Positions 8,998 through 17,431 of a stretch of 64,000 nt of DNA are shown here, piece after piece. Source of the stretch: an uncultured Actinomycetes bacterium (GTDB lineage: Bacteria; Actinomycetota; Thermoleophilia; RBG-16-64-13). A program made the translations under genes and the position numbers. The stretch is from positions 800,001 to 864,000 of the forward strand of contig CAWJDT010000001.1 of NCBI GenBank assembly GCA_963841735.1, read 5' to 3'. Each line of letters starts with the position of its first letter. Position 1 is the first letter of the stretch. The notes beneath the pieces were generated by a model. That model was given only the letters and a program-made list of their open reading frames with translations, was not told the origin of the DNA and did not search any database.

Positions 8998-9072
8998 GGT
9001 TGACTCCCCTTATACTCGCGCACCCTACCGGGCGATGGTAGCACGGGACCGGAGTCTCACTCACTGTGACTA

Positions 9073-9531
9073 CCGGCTCAGGCCGGTGCCTGCCGACTCG
9101 GCACTCGCCGGGGTTGCCCTTTGCTTCGCTCGGGCGGCAAAAGCCTCGCTGGCAGACACCGACCTGAGCCGGCACCCTCCGCCCAGCGGCGCCGGTCCCG
9201 CGCTTCCCGCGCGGTAGATGGTTTTCGGTGAGGGGTGCCTGCCGACTCGGCACTCGCCGGGGTTGCCCTTTGCTTCGCTCGGGCGGCAAAAGCCTCGCTG
9301 GCAGACACCGACCTGAGCCGGCACCCTCCGCCCAGCGCGCCAGTCCCGTGCTTCCAGCACGGTAGATGGTTTTCGGTGAGGGGTGCCTGCCGACTCGGCA
9401 CTCGCCGGGGTTGCCCTTTGCTTCGCTCGGGCGGCAAAAGCCTCGCTGGCAGACACCGACCTGAGCCGGCACCCTCCGCCCAGCGGCGCCGGTCCCGCGC
9501 TTCCCGCATGGTAGCTGTTCTCTCTGAGGGG
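9073..9531. repeat. Three tandem ~148-bp GC-rich palindromic repeats
   Basis: Units starting GTGCCTGCCGACTCGGCACTCGCC at 9086, 9235 and 9383 are near-identical; the first copy folds CCGGCTCAGG (9073) onto CCTGAGCCGG (9163-9172). Confidence 0.92.
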
Positions 9532-9609
9532 GCTTCTCCGCACACGCGGCTGCTTGTCAACCCAAGGTCTGATTACAGGGCGACGTCTATTCGTGTGACC
9601 CTGGCGACG

Positions 9610-10575
9610 ATGGACACGCCGCCAAGACTGCTCGATCAAATGCGCGAGGCACTACATGCGCGGCACTACAGCCTCCGCACAGAACGGGCCTACTGCGCCT
9701 GGGTGAGGCGCTTCATCTACTTCCACCACGTCCGCCATCCAGGTGAGATGGGGGGCCCGGAGATCAACGCCTTTCTCACTCACCTCGCGGTGGCGGAGAA
9801 CGTGAGCGCTTCGACGCAGAACCAGGCGCTGGCGGCGCTGCTCTTCCTGTACCGGCACGTACTAGACCGCGAAGTGGGCGACTTGGACGGAGTAATCCGT
9901 GCCAGGCACAGTGCCAAGGTCCCGGTGGTGATGACTCGCACCGAAGTGCGGGAGGTGCTTGCTCAACTCGCGGGCGACAAGTGGCTCATCGCCTCTCTAC
10001 TCTATGGCTGCGGGCTGCGACTACTGGAGTGCCTCCGGCTCCGGGTCAAGGACATCGACTTCTCCCGGGGCGAGATCACAGTGCACGATGGCAAGGGCGG
10101 GAAGGATCGTGTCACCATGTTGCCCGCGTCACTTGCCGATCCGTTGCAGCATCACCTTGTCTCGGTCAAGACGATCCACCAGGCCGATCTGGCCGACGGC
10201 TGGGGTCGCGTGCTCCTTCCTAACGCTCTTGATCGGAAGTACCCGAACGTGCCGGCCGACTGGCGCTGGCAGTGGGTCTTTCCCCAGGCCAACCGCTGGA
10301 AGAACAGCAGAACTGGGGAGGAAGGGCGGCATCATGTTCACGAGACCCTTGTTCAGCGCGCGGTGAAGGAGGCCGTAAGTCGCGCCGGTGTTGTCAAGCA
10401 CGTGGGGTGCCACACCTTCCGACACTCCTTCGCTACTCATCTCCTGGACGCGGGTTACGACATCCGCACGATCCAGGAACTCCTGGGCCACAAGGACGTT
10501 CGCACCACCATGATCTACACCCATGTGCTCAACCGCGGCGGCCAGGGCGTCCGCAGCCCGCTTGACTCCCTGTAG
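9610..10575 (+). CDS. intI: Integron integrase
   Basis: [49 protein letters not shown], plus the integron-specific insert '[20 protein letters not shown]...WQWVFP'; start ATG 9610 (the longer ORF just runs through the repeats). Confidence 0.97.
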
Positions 10576-10677
10576 GGCGGGCATATACAGATGGGATGAG
10601 AAGGCCGACCTCCCCCGGAGTACCGTGAGGTCCCCAATCAGAGTCGGGCTCGTGGGCCCAAATGAAGGAGGCCAGCC

Positions 10678-11760
10678 ATGTGCGATGCTAGCACCACCGA
10701 GCAAGCGAAGGTGACCGTGGGTCTCGATCTGAGCGACCGTTGTTGTCAGATCTGTGTGCTCGACGAAGCGGGCGAGGTGACCGAGGAGGGCCGGGTGACG
10801 ACCAAGCCGGAAGCCTTGCGTCGCCGCTTCTCCGGGGCGGATCCGCTACGCATCGTGATCGAGGCCGGCACCCACTCCCCCTGGGTTAGCCGTCTGCTTT
10901 CCGAACTTGGACACGACGTTGTCGTGGCCAATCCCCGCAAGCTCCGCTTCATCTACCAGAACGACTCGAAGTCAGACCGGGTGGACGCCGAGTACCTGGC
11001 CCGGGTCGGTCGTCTGGACCCGGAGCTGCTGGCCCCCCTCACCCATCGGAGAGCCGAGACCCAGTCCGACCTCGCGCTTGTGCGCAGTCGCAATGCCCTG
11101 GTCAGGGCTCGCACCCGTCTGATCAGTCATGCCCGCGGCTGCACGAAGTCCTTGGGCAGCCGCCTGCCCACCTGCGCGAGCGACGTCTTTGCCCAAAAGG
11201 CCGGGCCGTGTGTCCCCGAGGAGCTTGCTCCCGCCCTGGCTCCGGTCCTCACCGTCATCCAGAACATCTCCGATGAGATCCGCGCTCTCGATCAGAAGAT
11301 CGAAGACATGGCCAAGGAGCGCTACCCAGAGACCGCGCTTCTCTCCCAGGTGCCCGGCGTGGGCACGCTTACGGCCACAGTCTATGTCCTTACCGTGGAA
11401 GATCCCGAGCGCTTCCCCAAGTGCCGCTCGGTGGGCTCGTATCTCGGCCTCAGGCCCCGGCAGGCAAGCTCCGGTTCCCTGGAGCCTCAGCTGCGCATCA
11501 CCAAAGCCGGGGACGAGCACCTGCGCTGGCTCCTCGTGAGCGCCGCCCACTACATCCTCGGGCCCTTCGGCCCGGACTCGGATCTCAGGCGTTGGGGTCT
11601 TGCCTTGGCCGCGCAGGGCGGCAAGCGGGGCAAGAAGCGAGCGGTAGTGGCGGTGGCCCGCAAGCTCTCGGTGCTCCTCCTGCACCTCTGGAGGACCGGT
11701 GAGGTCTACGAGCCACTGCGCAACGTCCGGCTCCGCGGCGAGACTGCGCCCACCACCTAG
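10678..11760 (+). CDS. IS110 family transposase/recombinase
   Basis: DEDD residues in GLDLS, IEAG, KSDRVDA; C-terminal SSG serine motif; AVVAVARKL. Confidence 0.95.
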   Translation: MCDASTTEQAKVTVGLDLSDRCCQICVLDEAGEVTEEGRVTTKPEALRRRFSGADPLRIVIEAGTHSPWVSRLLSELGHDVVVANPRKLRFIYQNDSKSDRVDAEYLARVGRLDPELLAPLTHRRAETQSDLALVRSRNALVRARTRLISHARGCTKSLGSRLPTCASDVFAQKAGPCVPEELAPALAPVLTVIQNISDEIRALDQKIEDMAKERYPETALLSQVPGVGTLTATVYVLTVEDPERFPKCRSVGSYLGLRPRQASSGSLEPQLRITKAGDEHLRWLLVSAAHYILGPFGPDSDLRRWGLALAAQGGKRGKKRAVVAVARKLSVLLLHLWRTGEVYEPLRNVRLRGETAPTT

Positions 11761-12100
11761 GAGCGGTGAAGATGAGAGATGCCGACGGGAAGGATCGATA
11801 ACCAAGGAAGACCGGCGGGTGAACCCATCGCAGGAGACCAGCAAAAAGACCAACCGCCCAGGGTGAAAGCGACTGCGCACACAGACTCGGCCGTACAGAA
11901 CGACACCAACCCGGTGCCGTCCCCAAGGCCGCTATACAGATAGCAGCGCTTCCCCCCGGCCGGACCCCAACGTGCACCGGGTCCCGCCATAGGTTCCCGA
12001 CAAAAAGTGCGAATGGAAGCGTGGCCGTGGTCTTGGCTCTTCGCGGCGGAAGAGGGATGATAGAAACCGAGCAGAGGAGGAAGAAGCAACCCAAGAATCG
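11761..12100 (+). ncRNA. Putative bridge/seek RNA region of IS element A (boundaries approximate)
   Basis: CAGACT (11882) is the reverse complement of core plus right flank; CGGCC/GGCCG stem; TATACAG (11933) equals left flank plus core; ATGGAAG (12013) equals the IS right end. Confidence 0.6.
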
Positions 12101-12130
12101 CTCTTGACACCGGCCGGCTTCTCATGGAAG

Positions 12131-12284
12131 TCTGCATAACCCCAAGACCGCGCGGGCGTCTTGGGTTCAGAAACCGCTCGGTATGCCGACCAGGGGGGCT
12201 GTCTTGAGAATCGCAGCCGGAGTTATGCAGACAACCTGGTGCTGCGACGGTTGAGTTGGGCAGACTGGATAAGCATTGTTAGAC
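12131..12284 (+). other. Candidate attI region; crossover core GTTAGAC at 12278-12284
   Basis: GTTAGACAC (12278) is the exact complement of GTGTCTAAC (13128) ending cassette 1; no attC-type hairpin immediately upstream; repeated TATRC(A/C)GAC-like motifs. Confidence 0.7.
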
Positions 12285-12311
12285 ACAGACGCTGGGAGGC
12301 GCGCGGCGCGA

Positions 12312-13121
12312 ATGTCGTGGATGAGCGACAGCGGCACCGAGTACAGACTGTGCTTGCTCGACACAAACGCCTTGAGCAACATCGTCGAGCATCGCGACAC
12401 CTTTGGGCACGCTTTCATCGAGCGGTTTCCCCCAAGTGATTGGGCGCCATGCTGGACAATCTACAACGTCATCGAATTGCGTCGTGCCCCAGAGCATCTA
12501 CGACTATACGATGCCTGGCTCGACTTCTTCTCAAGGTATCCGAGCTTCCTTCTTGAGCCATATTCGCGCATCGTGGCGGCAGAGGTGGCGGCCTATCACC
12601 ACTATCCAGCTGGACCTCCGTTGCTCAACGCCTTCACTCTGGCTGGGTCCGAAGACAGGCACTTCCTGCGGCCGTTCCTAGAGAAGCTCTTTGTGCAGGA
12701 CTGGATGATCGAGCTTGAGGCCGGGTGGCGCGACGATGAGAATGACACCCTCCGGGAGTGGGTCTCACGTTCGAACGACGGTCGCAAAGCTGACCAGTAC
12801 GTCGCCGAGTCAGTGGTTGTTCACTTGGCCGAGAATCACCAATCTTGGACGGCGGGACTCCTGAACTCGGGTAGCACACTGGACATAAACCGATTCCCTG
12901 CGCTGCAGGCTATGCTGTATTCGCAGTTCTATCGTATTCGTGAGCCGGGGCGGGTTCATGAGGCAAGCGACGTTACGGACGTTCGGATCATGGCGGCGGC
13001 GCCCTATATGGAGGCGGTTGTCACGGAGAGGTTCCAGGCAGAGGTCTTTCGCAAGGCAAAGAGAGCGCTTTCGTCGATAGCACAGCTTGATGTCGTGAGG
13101 GTTGGTGAGTTGTGTGGCTGA
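12312..13121 (+). CDS. Gene cassette 1: PIN-like domain protein
   Basis: N-terminal LLDTNALS, mid-protein E, C-terminal DVTDVRIMAAAPYMEAVVTE; start ATG 12312 or 12321; bounded by attI and attC1. Confidence 0.6.
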   Translation: MSWMSDSGTEYRLCLLDTNALSNIVEHRDTFGHAFIERFPPSDWAPCWTIYNVIELRRAPEHLRLYDAWLDFFSRYPSFLLEPYSRIVAAEVAAYHHYPAGPPLLNAFTLAGSEDRHFLRPFLEKLFVQDWMIELEAGWRDDENDTLREWVSRSNDGRKADQYVAESVVVHLAENHQSWTAGLLNSGSTLDINRFPALQAMLYSQFYRIREPGRVHEASDVTDVRIMAAAPYMEAVVTERFQAEVFRKAKRALSSIAQLDVVRVGELCG

Positions 13122-13129
13122 CGCTTCGT

Positions 13130-13220
13130 GTCTAACAAGTGCGTGCAACCGACACCGGCGTTGTCTGCTGCATGGAGTACCATGGCCAACGGGCGCGGCT
13201 GACGCACTAGAACGTTAGCG
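13130..13220 (+). other. attC site 1 (intact)
   Basis: R'' GTCTAAC 13130; arm AGTGCGT(G)CAACCG pairs with CGGCTGACGCACT leaving an extrahelical G; R' GTTAGCG 13214. Confidence 0.93.
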
Positions 13221-13255
13221 TTACAAGGGAGAGTGGGGTTCTGGTGGGGGGTCGA

Positions 13256-14323
13256 ATGATCAAGCCGAAGTCGTACATCGTAGGGTTGGGTCTGTTGCTG
13301 ACCTTGGGGGCGGCAGTCGACGGTTGCTCAGGGCGTTCCTCCGATCAAGTCACTTTCGAGAGCGAATACGTTTCTCTGCAACTGCCCGACTCGTTCGTCG
13401 GAGGCGATCCAGCGGATCCGAATGTGATGGCCGCGCTCAAGAAGCATGCCGAGAAGAACCCTGATTCCGAGACCCGTGCCGACCTCAAGTCGTACCTGGA
13501 CGGACTAGAGAGTGACATCCGAAGGGACGAGGAGTACCACTTCGTAAGGAATGGCCCTCTTCTTCTCCTCTGGGGTGAGCCGGATAAGGACGGCTCCATG
13601 GCGGAGGTCTACGTGTCGCGCGTTCTCGTGCAGAACATACTCCCGCTGACCGACGGTGACTCCTCAATGGAAGCCCTCGTGAAGGGTTTGAACTTCTGGC
13701 CAGAGTCAGAGTGGTACATCGATAATCTCACCGCTGATGCTGCGGAGGTGTTGCTCTACCATGTCAAAGAGAGTCCCGACGACATGACGGTGCGCGAACA
13801 TCATGTGTTCAAGGCCACGGCTGAGTATGTCTACGAGTTCACCTACGTCTACTACGACGAGATTTCGGCAGACCTGGACTCTGTCTTCGCCTCAAGTGCC
13901 GACACTGCTACCGTCAAGTGGCCCTACAACTCACAGAAGCAGTCTGTGGACCAGAAGGCCTACCGGCAGGATGGGGACTGCGAGTCTCTCGTCGAGAAGG
14001 CAAAGTACGCTCTAGAAAAGGCATACAAGGAACTGGGGACATGCGACCCCGGGGTGGTGACACCCAAGGTACTGAGCGAGATCGAGCCGGGTGTTGTCTT
14101 CATCGTCGTCGAGGACGCTGAAGCTGCACTTGCACCCGAAGCTGCAACCGTGCGGAATGAGGTCGCCTACTGGGGCGATGCTGGGACCTATACGGTTGGT
14201 TCGTGCTCCGAGTCTGGCAAGACGTACGGCGTATTCCATGATATGGCGGACCCTGGATGGTATCGAGTTTCCGAAGGCGGTCAGCCGGGCTCCAGGAGAT
14301 ATGAGATACCGACAGACAAGTAG
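13256..14323 (+). CDS. Gene cassette 2: predicted lipoprotein of unknown function
   Basis: Signal peptide ending AVDG-C; cassette bounded by GTTAGCGTT (13214) and its complement AACGCTAAC (14343). Confidence 0.7.
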   Translation: MIKPKSYIVGLGLLLTLGAAVDGCSGRSSDQVTFESEYVSLQLPDSFVGGDPADPNVMAALKKHAEKNPDSETRADLKSYLDGLESDIRRDEEYHFVRNGPLLLLWGEPDKDGSMAEVYVSRVLVQNILPLTDGDSSMEALVKGLNFWPESEWYIDNLTADAAEVLLYHVKESPDDMTVREHHVFKATAEYVYEFTYVYYDEISADLDSVFASSADTATVKWPYNSQKQSVDQKAYRQDGDCESLVEKAKYALEKAYKELGTCDPGVVTPKVLSEIEPGVVFIVVEDAEAALAPEAATVRNEVAYWGDAGTYTVGSCSESGKTYGVFHDMADPGWYRVSEGGQPGSRRYEIPTDK

Positions 14324-14422
14324 CCGCCCGAAAGTGAGACTGAACGCTAACAAGATGGCATGAAAAGGACGCTGCGCCGACACTGTCGTTGTGAGGAGCA
14401 ACGATAGGAAGGAGAAGCGCCG

Positions 14423-15415
14423 ATGCCAACTTACTACCTGGGCCTCGATGTCCACAAGGTCCGCACCCAGTACTGTCTGATGGATCTGGGCGGTGAGATC
14501 CTATCCGAGGGCAATGTCCCCACCGAAGAAGCCGCGTCTCTGGTGTCCGAGATCGATTCTGCCGTGGTGCTGGAGGCCACAGGCAGCTGGCACGCCACCT
14601 ACGACGCGCTCGTCGCCACCGGAGCCGCTGTCAAGCTGGCACACCCCGCCCGCATCAAGGCCATCGCCTCCGCTAAGGTCAAGACCGACAAGATCGACGC
14701 CCGCATCCTGGCGCATCTGTTGCGTGCTGATCTCATCCCCGAGGCCTGGGCACCTCCCACTTCAGTGCGGGAACTTAGGGACCTGGTGCGGCTTCGTTGG
14801 CGCTTCATCTCCCAGCGCACCACTGCCAAGAACCGCATCACCAACCTGCTGGCCCGCGAGAACCTGCGCTTCGCCGGCACCGATCTGTTCGGCAAGAGTG
14901 GCAGGAAGTGGCTGGAGGCGCTGGATCTGCGGGCACACACCCGGAGTCTCATCGCCTTGCTGCTCGTCTCCATCGAGGAGGCCGATGCCCACGTGGCCGT
15001 TCTCACCTCTCGACTGCATGAGCTGCTCGACCGGGACCCGGACATGGGTCTGCTCATGACCATACCCGGTGTGGGTTTCATCACCGCGGCCACGCTCTCC
15101 GCCGAGGTCGGTGACTGGAGCCGCTTCTCCTCGGCAAGGCAGGTCTCCTGCTACTTCGGCATCATCCCCTCGGTGCGGAGTTCAGGTACTGTGGCCCACT
15201 ACGGACACATCACGCGGGCCGGGAGTCCTCACGCAAGGCGAGCGCTCGTCGAGGCGGCGCACACCGCCAAGAAATTGCCGGGGCCGGTCCGCCACCACTA
15301 CCTCGCTCTAGTCAAGCGTCGCGGCAAGAAGGTCGCCCTCGTCGCCGCAGCCCGTGTGCTGCTGGAACTGTCCTGGACCCTCCTGCACAAGAAGGAGGTG
15401 TTTCAGGCGGCTTAA
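14423..15415 (+). CDS. IS110 family transposase/recombinase
   Basis: LGLDVH, LEATG, KTDKIDA (DEDD); IPGVG; VRSSG; ALVAAAR. Confidence 0.95.
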   Translation: MPTYYLGLDVHKVRTQYCLMDLGGEILSEGNVPTEEAASLVSEIDSAVVLEATGSWHATYDALVATGAAVKLAHPARIKAIASAKVKTDKIDARILAHLLRADLIPEAWAPPTSVRELRDLVRLRWRFISQRTTAKNRITNLLARENLRFAGTDLFGKSGRKWLEALDLRAHTRSLIALLLVSIEEADAHVAVLTSRLHELLDRDPDMGLLMTIPGVGFITAATLSAEVGDWSRFSSARQVSCYFGIIPSVRSSGTVAHYGHITRAGSPHARRALVEAAHTAKKLPGPVRHHYLALVKRRGKKVALVAAARVLLELSWTLLHKKEVFQAA

Positions 15416-15610
15416 GAGGAGAGCCCGTTGCACGCGCTGGGAGCGTGTTCGACTCCCGTTAACAAGATTCGGCCTCCTCACCGCCGCATAGCCCATCTGA
15501 GCGCCTGGATAGATGAGCGCGAATGGAAGCTTGGCCCTCGAAGCCGTTGATGGTGGAAGGCGCGCGTTCGGGGACGGTAGAATCAAGAGCGTGCGAAGCT
15601 CAAGATGAAG
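15416..15610 (+). ncRNA. Putative bridge/seek RNA region of IS element B (boundaries approximate)
   Basis: GTTGCACGCGCT (15427), GGGAG/CTCCC stem, TAACAAG (15460), CCATCT (15493) and ATGGAAG (15523) match the attC target flanks and the IS circle junction. Confidence 0.75.
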
Positions 15611-15736
15611 ACTTGCACTCTGAGTCCTTTTCATGGAAGTGCGTGCAACCGACATCCTTCATTGTCTATCGCATGGAGTACCATGGCCAACGGGCGCGGC
15701 TGACGCGCTAGAACGTTAGCCATACAGGGGGTTCTA

Positions 15737-16480
15737 TTGGACCGAGCTAGGGCGGTTGATCTGTACCTTCAGTGTTGTGGCTTGCAGAATGATCTCGAAC
15801 CGAAGCCCGTGGTCGCCAAGTACACGGAGTTTCTCGACGAAGCAGTTGCCCAGTTGTCGATCAATGACTTCGCAATCAACTCCAAGCAGCATCTGCGGGA
15901 CATAGCCAACTTCGTCAATGAGTTCGCTTTCAACCACCAGAGGCTGCGTGCTTGGGAACGGATACTGCCTGATCTGAGCGACCAGGAACGGCTCGATGTC
16001 CTGATCGAATTCGTCGACCCAATCGTCTATCTCTGCATGGGAGCTCCCGCCGCGTTGAAGGGGCGCCTTCACTTCTCGATGAGGTCACTTCTCTCTTGGC
16101 GAACGAACATCGTGTCCCAGGCTGGACTTACTCTCCGCCGCCTGCGCACTCCACGTTTGAGGGCGCTCGTTCTCAGGCCCGGCTTTGGGATAGCTGGCCA
16201 AGATTGCGGGATTGCCTAGGGGTGCTCAACAACCATGATTTCAAGAGGCGCGTATACGAGTTCAGGGATCACTTCGAACATGGGAGTCCTCGGCTGGTAG
16301 AGTTCGGTGAGAAACTAATGGCGTGGAGAGATGCGCATGGTCGTGTTCTGGGCGTCGAACCAGCCATTTCGCTGGCGAGTGTCGTAGAGTCGCTAGGTCC
16401 GCAGCAGTCGGCCTCAGTTGCTGCCTATGATGCATACGTCGCTTTGGTGGAGGAACAGCATTCGGCGATCCTACAAGAGC
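15737..16480 (+). pseudogene. Gene cassette 3: frameshifted HEPN-like (RxxxxH) protein, 3' end and attC missing
   Basis: Follows R' GTTAGCC (15715); overlapping ORFs 15737..16219 and 16096..; FRDHFEH motif in the second frame. Confidence 0.55.
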
Positions 16481-16732
16481 CAGATCGAGGGCGACGGTAT
16501 CGCGGCTGCCTATGTCGCCCAGAAGGAAGCCATCGGCCAGCAGAATGTGGCGGTGATCAAGCTCATGCAGGAGATAGCAGCCGGCAATATCCAAATCGTG
16601 CCCCAGGTCCTGGTGGGCGGCGAGGGCTCAGCGAGCGGCAACCTGTTCAATGCCTGGCTGTCTCAGATGATCTCTCAGAACGTGCCGAAGACCGAGGCAG
16701 ACAAGAAGGCGGAGAAGAAGGCTGCTGGGTGA
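16481..16732 (+). pseudogene. Orphan 3' fragment of a flotillin/SPFH-like gene
   Basis: IEGDGIAAAYVAQKEAIGQQNVAVIKLMQEIAAGNIQIVPQVLVGG resembles flotillin C-termini; no own start. Confidence 0.5.
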
Positions 16733-16744
16733 TCTGAGGGCTTG

Positions 16745-17431
16745 TCATACCCTGAACGCCGACGGACAAGCATCGGCCAGCAGGCACTCACCGCAGCGGG
16801 GGCGCTTGGCGTCGCAGACCGCCCGGCCGTGTTCTATCAACAGGTAGGTCAGGCGGAACCAGTCTTCTCTCGGGACGATCTCCATCAGCTCGCGCTCGAC
16901 CTTCTCGGAGTCGTGCGACGTGGCTAGGCCCAGTCTTTGGCTTAGGCGGTTGACGTGGGTGTCTACCGCTATGCCTGCGTCCGGGTCTGACGCGTACGCT
17001 TCGGGATGGGCGTTGCCCAGCACTACATTGGCCGTCTTGCGCGCCACTCCCGGCAGGGTCAGCAGGCCGGTCATGCTCGCGGGGATGTCTCCGCCGTAGT
17101 CGGCCAGGATCTTATGGGCGGCACCGATGATGTGCTTCGTCTTGTTTCTGAAGAAGCCTGTGGGCCTGATGTCGGCCTCGAACTCCACCGGGTCGGCACC
17201 GGCGTACGCCTCTACGGTGCGGTACTTCTTGAATAGCTTGGCGGTGACTTGGTTGACCATCTTGTCTGTACACTGGGCCGAGAGGATGACGGCCACCAGT
17301 AGTTCCCAGCCGTTGCCGAAGTCGAGCACTATCCCTGCGCTGGGGTATTCAGCCTTCAGGCGTGCGAGTATTTCCAACGCGTACGCGCGCTTGCCCGCCG
17401 ACGGAGTGCTCTGGACTACCTTCTTCACCAT
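16745..17431 (-). CDS. nth: Endonuclease III
   Basis: LLVAVILSAQCTD, HhH LPGVARKTANVV, VDTHV, [4Fe-4S] C-x6-C-x2-C-x5-C; start ATG 17431. Confidence 0.95.
   Translation of the reverse strand: MVKKVVQSTPSAGKRAYALEILARLKAEYPSAGIVLDFGNGWELLVAVILSAQCTDKMVNQVTAKLFKKYRTVEAYAGADPVEFEADIRPTGFFRNKTKHIIGAAHKILADYGGDIPASMTGLLTLPGVARKTANVVLGNAHPEAYASDPDAGIAVDTHVNRLSQRLGLATSHDSEKVERELMEIVPREDWFRLTYLLIEHGRAVCDAKRPRCGECLLADACPSAFRV

Follow-up and report, generated by a model that had tools for sequence, protein, structure and literature searches.

An IS1111-family insertion sequence within an integron attC site, very probably aimed there by RNA from its own 3′ non-coding region

The 64,000-nucleotide stretch of DNA analysed here (the window; positions 800,001 to 864,000 of contig CAWJDT010000001.1, assembly GCA_963841735.1, from an uncultured Actinomycetes bacterium) carries a chromosomal integron, and the second attC site of its cassette array, attC2, is interrupted by an insertion sequence (IS) that we call IS B. 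We conclude that IS B is an intact member of the IS1111 family and that, as far as comparison of sequences can tell, it is very probably guided to attC by an RNA encoded in its own 3′ non-coding region (NCR). Three kinds of evidence carry this conclusion: the anatomy of the element, the covariation of its predicted guide with the flanking target across relatives, and compensatory changes within the predicted RNA structure. Alternatives in which the protein itself picks the target, in which the present copy is an immobile relic, or in which IS B belongs to the attC-targeting IS1111 elements already described in Proteobacteria are weighed below, together with a second IS1111-type element of the same integron, IS A, which follows the same design.

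Anatomy of IS B and of its predicted RNA

IS B is a complete element of 1285 bp on the + strand (14355–15639), its first bases being ATGGCATGAAAAGGAC at 14355 and its last ..GTCCTTTTCATGGAAG at 15639. On the left it abuts the left part of attC2 (14345–14354, + strand; CGCTAACAAG, the R″ box followed by AAG, together the left target and the core), and on the right the remainder of the same site (15640–15721, + strand), which reads directly from the L″ arm, beginning TGCGTGCAAC, to the R′ box GTTAGCC at 15715. Both ends of the element are fixed because the uninterrupted sequence TAACAAGTGCGTGCAAC recurs in attC1 (13133–13149), its only hit in the window at three or fewer mismatches, and the lengths of the 16 relatives for which both ends are available (1271–1312 bp) are in line with these ends. 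Direct reading thus bears out, exact to the base, the boundary CGCTAACAAG|TGCGTGCAAC that an earlier note on this DNA had drawn within attC2, as well as the note's view of attC1 as an identical, empty target. When the two parts of attC2 are rejoined they give a 91-nt attC fold with six terminal pairs, the R″ and R′ ends being paired. Within the element, 12-bp subterminal inverted repeats lie 4 nt inside each end; the left repeat, CATGAAAAGGAC (14359–14370, + strand), directly follows the terminal ATGG, while the right repeat, GTCCTTTTCATG (15624–15635), is followed by the terminal GAAG, the two together occupying 15624–15639 on the + strand.

The transposase/recombinase gene (14423–15415, + strand) encodes 330 amino acids with matches to the Pfam domains DEDD_Tnp_IS110 (PF01548, 8.2e-20) and Transposase_20 (PF02371, 4.1e-24) and to the NCBIfam model NF033542, ‘IS110 family RNA-guided transposase’ (249.9 bits, cut-off 140). 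Residues D9, E51, D89 and D92 are conserved in 118–122 of 122 aligned proteins, and the motif G246..P249..S254 is kept. The gene leaves 224 nt of non-coding sequence on the 3′ side (15416–15639) as against 68 nt on the 5′ side (14355–14422). IS B therefore shows the marks of the IS1111 group, namely the DEDD and PF02371 domains, subterminal repeats in the range of 7–17 bp and a longer NCR on the downstream side of the gene; inverted repeats of this length, placed subterminally with short terminal extensions, are given as characteristic of the group by Durrant et al. (PMC11208160). The earlier note had called the recombinase compact. This description does not hold, because IS1111 transposases are reported to be usually 330–350 amino acids long (Siddiquee et al., PMC11187229).

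The 3′ NCR contains four segments that match the target or the ends of the element, at 15427, 15460, 15493 and 15523, together with a GGGAG/CTCCC hairpin, all of them where the earlier note had placed them. The first is the predicted right-target guide, GTTGCACGCGCT (15427–15438, 12 nt, + strand), which is complementary to the top strand over the core AG and TGCGTGCAAC. Eleven of its 12 positions agree with the reverse complement of AG+TGCGTGCAAC, the exception being a G opposite T; the first ten bases of the right flank are accordingly read by nine Watson–Crick pairs and one G:T wobble, and the core AG is paired as well. The second is the predicted left-target guide, UAACAAG (15460–15466, + strand), which is identical to the left flank plus core and would pair with the bottom strand. 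The strands of the hairpin lie at 15439–15443 (GGGAG) and 15453–15457 (CTCCC). Further downstream, CCAUCU (15493–15498) and AUGGAAG (15523–15529) occupy the strands flanking the hairpin of a putative donor-binding domain; as DNA, CCATCT matches AG|ATGG and ATGGAAG matches CATGGAAG, both belonging to the junction ..CATGGAAG|ATGGCATG.. that an excised circle would have.

A rival explanation of these matches is that the protein picks the target, recognizing either the folded attC hairpin or the R″ box, and that the segments in the NCR are due to chance or are leftovers of a captured attC. The part played by chance was assessed with 20,000 dinucleotide-preserving shuffles of 15416–15615. The 12-mer of the right guide occurred with at most one mismatch in 7 of the 20,000 and TAACAAG in 42, so that each target match alone is far beyond chance; CCATCT occurred in 408 and ATGGAAG in 493 (∼2% in either case), and not one of the 20,000 shuffles held all four segments. 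Taken alone, the donor matches are weak, and what speaks for them is their position and their invariance across relatives, CCATC and ATGGAAGC being present without change in 16 of 16 NCRs. Capture of an attC fragment fits the arrangement poorly: one guide is in sense and the other is a reverse complement, and because they run in opposite directions with a hairpin between them, the guides are not a copied piece of attC.

The structure of the predicted RNA was derived from an alignment of 16 distinct NCRs (A1), on which the RNAalifold consensus is based. The target-binding domain of the predicted seekRNA or bridge RNA (15417–15478, + strand), which is supported by the centroid fold, by the RNAalifold consensus and by pair counts, consists of an outer stem, AGGAG(A)GCC/GGCCUCCU with a bulged A, around a 13/13 internal loop and the hairpin at 15439–15457. 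In the consensus the two target segments form the two strands of this one internal loop, and the centroid fold of the 65-nt target domain of the window has the same shape, in agreement with the prediction that the guides would be found in an internal loop. The motif AACAAGA is invariant in all 16 aligned NCRs and the T before it is nearly so. Consensus partners can pair in 95.2% of cells, as compared with 28–49% when partners are slid by one to three columns, and structural covariation scores 0.161 where shuffles score 0.109, none of 500 shuffles reaching the observed value. Two pairs of the hairpin exchange GC for AU, in seven and five sequences respectively, and both stems around the target loop show compensatory changes; folding and comparison with homologous elements, which had been proposed as a check, thus yielded both the loop and its covariation. 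The putative donor-binding domain (15483–15535, + strand), supported by the alignment, by RNAalifold and by pair counts, has a stem GCCG/UGGC and a hairpin GCGCC..G(A)GCGC, the latter with one compensatory pair.

We propose that an RNA made from the 3′ NCR of IS B would aim the recombinase. In its first domain a stem encloses the hairpin and the large internal loop. The 5′ half of this loop would pair with the top strand of the L″ arm of attC, to the right of the crossover; the 3′ half, UAACAAG, would pair to the left of the crossover, with the bottom strand of the R″ box, which is conserved, and both halves would read the shared core AG. In the second domain, CCAUCU and AUGGAAG would bind the excised circle where its two ends are joined. 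The DEDD/Ser recombinase would then exchange strands at the core, and the element would land between R″ and L″ of attC in the direction of the cassettes; the insertion splits attC, and folding of the site as an integrase substrate should therefore stop. A TTGCAC at 15613–15618 (+ strand), picked out by eye, may serve as the −35 element of a promoter assembled at the circle junction, an idea taken from the literature on ISEc11; TTGCA stands at the matching place in two relatives (L002 and L003).

Guides and flanks of related elements

Relatives were collected by scanning species-representative genomes and metagenome contigs, once each. At least 21 elements have transposases 65–92% identical to that of IS B, while all others among the matches listed are at most 47% identical. 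Four of the relatives (L002, L003, L004 and L027) are in metagenome-assembled genomes (MAGs) labelled Actinomycetota, as Actinomycetes or Thermoleophilia, and at least 17 (L088–L102, L107 and L109) are on metagenome contigs, L090 and L091 being one sequence. Two copies, L090 and L092, lie 5.6 kb apart on one 118-kb metagenome contig and carry an identical guide.

The sequence CTAACAAG stands directly outside the left end in 18 of the 21 loci, the window included, in which that end is present, and the left flanks of L003, L088 and L107 differ from it by one base, which upholds the expectation that other members of the group would be found at TAACAAG-type sites. Eight of 15 rejoined or right-hand targets fold as attC, with lengths of 62–121 nt and at least five terminal R″/R′ pairs; the targets of L004, L090, L095 and L096 are attC-like by eye, and that of L088 is cut short, yet matches the attC family of the window. 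Among the 15 examined, the targets of L002 and L109 are without R′ and do not look like attC.

The right flank, unlike the left, varies among the 17 loci that show the right end, and the 5′ half of the loop varies along with it. The guide GTTGCACGCGCT of the window faces the flank TGCGTGCAAC; L088 has the guide GCTGCACGCGCT and the flank CGCGTGCAGC, L002 has AAGCACGCGCT and CGCGTGCTT, L004 has GCAACGGCT and CCGTTGC, and L094 has GATCCGCT and CGGATC, while L003, L095 and L096 have the guide GATGCGCT and the flank CGCATC. Over the first ten positions of the flank, L088 forms ten Watson–Crick pairs and the window and L002 form nine each; several of the mismatches between guide and flank are G:T. 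Summed over 16 non-redundant elements, guides form 92 Watson–Crick pairs with their own flanks, as compared with 69.9 ± 4.3 when flanks are permuted, and a sum of 92 was reached by one of 20,000 permutations. At the level of sequence, this covariation supports the proposal of the earlier note that IS B encodes an RNA-programmed recombinase aimed at attC.

It also bears on target choice by the protein. Such an explanation gains from the left flank, which is near invariant and for that reason indistinguishable from recognition of the R″ box, and from those elements in which only four Watson–Crick pairs are formed on the right. It does not account for a right guide that changes with the right flank, at a level matched by a single permutation in 20,000. 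Nor does it sit well with the published swaps of seekRNA, which are reported to retarget IS1111 elements (PMC11187229), or with the second IS1111-type element of the window, which uses the same loop for a site that is not an attC. We consider direct recognition by the protein, with fortuitous or captured matches in the NCR, highly improbable.

This second element, IS A (10591–12130, + strand; 1540 bp, with a transposase gene at 10678–11760), is only distantly related to IS B, its transposase being at most 36% identical to any other protein in the compared set. Its NCR folds (z −3.6) to the same design, an 11/11 loop reading GCACACAGACU and CUAUACAGAUA; in the fold, the target loop spans 11862–11955, with CAGACU at 11882–11887 and UAUACAG at 11943–11949, and the flanks of the element, CATATACAG|TCTGCATAAC, match both halves of this loop. 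IS A thus appears to provide an internal control for the guide model, having the same loop design and a target of its own.

Several observations weigh against RNA guidance as set out here. Complementarity is loose in L089, L092, L097 and L099, with four Watson–Crick pairs in the first eight to ten positions, and the permutation of flanks takes no account of relatedness among the elements. The L090 and L092 copies share their guide, although the L″ arms of the attC sites that they occupy are not alike, and form six and four Watson–Crick pairs in the first ten positions; in nature, then, the right guide can evidently bear several mismatches. Folded at minimum free energy, the whole NCR does not surpass its shuffles (z +0.38; z +1.87) and the 65-nt target domain alone reaches z = −1.37, so that the structural case is built on comparison between sequences, single-sequence energies not being significant. 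For the donor domain, RNAalifold pairs CCAU with AUGG rather than leaving the donor segments open, although the donor-binding nucleotides of many IS1111 RNAs are described as lying in multiloops (Durrant et al., PMC11208160). The donor segments never vary in the clade and can give no signal of covariation; because the ends of the IS do not vary either, the role of the donor loop is one that we infer. A scan of 10000–17000 against Rfam 15 at E ≤ 1 gave no hit, and when 14300–15750 was scanned for consensus motifs, the + strand yielded no sigma-70-like promoter, a single weak match being on the − strand, and intrinsic terminators were not found either.

Evidence of expression is likewise slight. 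A search of sequencing runs found that every run held at most 0.16 of the sampled words of the stretch. Four wetland RNA libraries were compared, regions without cover in them carrying no meaning, and in these libraries contigs of relatives span the 3′ end of the transposase gene and the NCR, one over 15301–15545 with five differences and one over 15372–15589 with 22. The contigs are a weak hint that relatives are expressed; they derive from relatives, show neither strand nor ends, and may reflect carry-over of DNA. That IS B itself gives rise to the RNA is what its membership of the family would lead one to expect.

A last point on the same side is that IS B is present as a single copy despite two perfect empty targets in its genome (G000, 2.8 Mb, 89.7% complete); the mapping of further genomic copies that the earlier note had called for found none besides IS B itself. 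The second empty target, in addition to attC1, is on another contig (C5:148980–148996). A single copy would suit the explanation that the element is designed as described, with the present copy an immobile resident relic whose guide is unused here. The persistence of both empty targets (C1:813133 and C5:148980) in an 89.7%-complete genome with one copy of IS B fits this explanation, as does the contrast with IS A, which has five identical copies, and the guide of IS B has one G:T against its own site, while the guide of L088 fits its site at all ten positions. The state of the element argues the other way: the open reading frame (ORF) is open with all conserved catalytic positions kept, and no damage or departure from the consensus of the clade is seen at either end, in the repeats or in the four guide segments. 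Single copies are moreover common in the family, 110 IS having been recorded at only one or two locations in the survey cited (PMC11187229). We regard a relic as unlikely and prefer to view IS B as an intact element that may still excise as a circle and move.

Relation to the proteobacterial IS1111-attC group

The mechanism itself is already known, RNA guidance of attC-targeting IS1111 elements having been published in 2024 (PMC11187229). In that report (Siddiquee et al. 2024), a seekRNA from the 3′ NCR is described as co-purifying with the IS1111 transposase, as required for movement and as reprogrammable, with the match to the top strand lying 5′ of that to the bottom strand and the two overlapping in the target; the attC-targeting examples it gives are ISKpn4 and ISPst6, both purified with RNA, and ISPa25, for which a seekRNA was predicted. 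For 93% of IS1111 elements, the right end has been predicted to encode a bridge RNA (PMC11208160). The attC-targeting elements ISPa21, ISPst6 and their relatives have been described as a monophyletic subset of IS1111 whose members insert near the 5′ end of attC, antisense to the cassettes (PMC3001079).

IS B could in principle be a diverged, horizontally spread member of this proteobacterial IS1111-attC group (ISPa21, ISPst6, ISKpn4). It shares the class of target with the group, and near enough the same sub-site, CGCTAACAA|TTCAAGCC for ISPa21 (in cassette orientation) and CGCTAACAAG|TGCGTGC for IS B. In the tests of identity and phylogeny that follow, the group of Tetu & Holmes is represented by ISPa21 alone, ISKpn4, ISPst6 and ISPa25 being left out. 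The transposase of IS B shares no more than 26% identity with its ISPa21 counterpart, as against 35–47%, among the matches listed, with those of roughly 140 IS1111-type elements without known association with attC. A FastTree phylogeny built from 122 transposases places the IS B clade, with its 16 rows and a support of 100, in a group of 119 rows (support 99%) from which ISPa21, IS4321 and IS A are excluded. When the IS B clade and ISPa21 were forced together in an IQ-TREE analysis of 42 rows, a grouping named after the first tree had been seen, the cost was 61.2 log-likelihood units (p-AU 0.00013). IS B thus falls outside the monophyletic subset as represented by ISPa21, and it lies within attC as members of the subset do, in sense rather than antisense orientation. 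With low identity, tree topology and opposite orientation all pointing the same way, we find membership of the proteobacterial group scarcely credible, and take the IS B clade to be a lineage of its own. Four multi-copy outgroup families at 36–43% identity (L008/9, L032/33, L039/40 and L023/24) show no CTAACAAG context; the flanks of their copies, taken at approximate ends, differ.

The two lineages can be compared in the light of their folds. ISPa21, read from plasmid pME-1a, where it lies on the strand opposite to the cassettes, folds likewise, one half of the loop holding UAACAAU and the other UUGAA. IS B resembles the IS1111-attC group in its subterminal repeats, its 3′ NCR, the presence of both target matches in one internal loop and insertion at the R″/L″ junction. 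It differs in being inserted in sense to the cassettes, in having the UAACAA that reads R″ in the 3′ half of the loop rather than in the 5′ half as in ISPa21, in a crossover that lies ∼1 nt further on (core AG, as against AA in ISPa21), in a long and variable guide that reads the variable L″ arm, and in its hosts, which are non-proteobacterial MAGs with a co-directional intI. Both RNAs carry UAACAA, and therefore both would pair with the bottom strand of R″; judging by the two folds, we infer that the swap of the guides between the halves of the loop is what turns the element round.

Likenesses extend to other RNA-guided elements. IS B has the domain layout, the protein length (330–350 amino acids), the downstream NCR and the order of matches, top-strand match 5′ of bottom-strand match with overlap, of ISEc11 and ISPa11, for which seekRNA has been shown experimentally; instead of attC, their targets are a short linear site and REP sequences. 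With IS621 and the other bridge recombinases of the IS110 group (Durrant et al. 2024; Hiraizumi et al. 2024) it has in common a DEDD recombinase and a predicted RNA with a target loop and a putative donor loop; in the bridge RNA of IS621 type each of the two loops reads both strands around a common core. The IS110 group departs from IS B in encoding the RNA upstream of the gene, within the left end, in carrying the guides in reverse order and in having subterminal repeats of no more than 2–3 bp. Group IIC-attC introns are, like IS B, mobile and specialized on the 5′ part of attC in cassette arrays, but they are retroelements with ribozyme-based targeting and are described as inserting antisense to cassette transcription.

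Our search of the open-access literature turned up no description of an attC-targeting IS1111 lineage that is non-proteobacterial or sense-oriented. What is new here, on the comparisons above, would be a lineage separate from the proteobacterial IS1111-attC group, and the use of the same R″/L″ junction in sense orientation, with the two guides apparently swapped between the halves of the loop. New, too, is the setting in co-directional chromosomal integrons outside Proteobacteria.

IS A and the integron surroundings

In the window the integron integrase gene intI (9628–10575, + strand) is co-directional with the cassettes and lies 3.8 kb upstream of IS B, and the transposase gene of IS B is on the same strand as intI and the cassette ORFs. 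Residues 132–446 of the ORF at 9235–10575 match the integron integrase model TIGR02249 with a score of 484.5 bits (cut-off 265), and Pfam identifies the domains Phage_int_SAM_4 and Phage_integrase. The order of the array is intI, IS A, a likely attI region extending to GTTAGAC (12278), and then the two cassettes, the first with attC1 and the second with attC2. The intact, unoccupied attC1 (13130–13220, + strand; R″ GTCTAAC at 13130, R′ GTTAGCG at 13214) belongs to a repeat family, D5, whose members include the right part of attC2, to which it is 90% identical. All four of the named MAGs encode an IntI 67–79% identical to that of the window, and in G001 and G002, as in the window, the integrase gene precedes the IS by a few kb and points the same way.

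IS A is present in five copies in the genome (window 10591–12130; C1:402657, C1:1356121, C5:150371 and C6:30375), with identical transposases and the same junction in all five. Each is inserted ∼20 nt past the stop codon of intI or of its 3′ remnant, at CATATACAG|TCTG(C/T)ATA; two of the copies follow a full intI, and the others follow a 65-amino-acid fragment, a 36-amino-acid remnant and a 34-nt remnant. An empty IS A site, GCATATACAGTCTGCATAAC, is found in G001, 5 nt after the stop codon of intI. Relatives of IS A at 55–59% identity are at unrelated sites. An IS1111 element aimed at the junction of intI and attI may represent a new class of target.

Taken together, these data admit a broader reading, which we put forward tentatively and with more doubt than confidence: that attC targeting arose a second time in IS1111, with mirror-imaged guides, and that at least seven long-guide alleles of the IS B clade track the attC types of their hosts, so forming, with IS A at all five junctions of intI stop and attI, a guild of RNA-guided parasites on both recombination sites of one non-proteobacterial integron family. 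If this is true, the guild could freeze cassette arrays or put them under IS-borne control, and the guide alleles would constitute a natural series of retargeted recombinases. Integron attC sites would have been colonized independently by two IS1111 lineages with the same RNA logic and opposite orientations, and the integrons of poorly known soil and wetland bacteria would have specialized IS elements of their own. IS B splits an attC and IS A separates intI from attI, and the excision and expression of cassettes are likely to be altered. Genome engineers would find in the clade ∼20 natural orthologues of a single small recombinase, with guide alleles that can be read directly against known targets; it is useful comparative material, though one of many such sets.

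Complete co-directional chromosomal integrons were seen in the window (9628–15721), elsewhere in the same genome (C6:31559–32506) and in G001–G004 (L170–L173). The IntegronFinder 2.0 paper reports, for the complete genomes it surveyed, no complete integron in Actinobacteria (PMC9024848). Neither WhiB (PF02467) nor LpxC (PF03331) had a match in the genome of the window, and WhiB had none in the four MAGs labelled Actinomycetota either. Comparison with a protein atlas gave mixed signals for the host phylum, RlmKL pointing to Pseudomonadota and RecA to Omnitrophota and Bacillota. Matches to rpoB in this genome (C1:122993–126436) are split over three reading frames, which suggests indel errors in the assembly, and short ORF calls in it need care.

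A second cassette array lies at C5:146185–149003 (L175), beside a copy of IS A and a fragment of intI, and contains an attC 97.8% identical to attC1. Contigs from the RNA-library runs X7, X14 and X18, aligned to 15637–15722 of the window, carry an unoccupied attC of the same family, their loose ends reading ..GCTAAC before 15637; cassette arrays of the window type therefore appear in metatranscriptomes.

Just upstream of intI, the window contains three tandem copies of a 148-nt unit at 78–97% identity (9040–9484), and these units fall within the long N-terminal extension of the ORF at 9235–10575. Between IS A and the first cassette (12131–12284) there is an inverted pair, TCTGCATAAC/GTTATGCAGA, together with repeated TGCAGAC-like motifs, which probably are the IntI-binding repeats of attI; similar motifs recur after intI in G001–G004.

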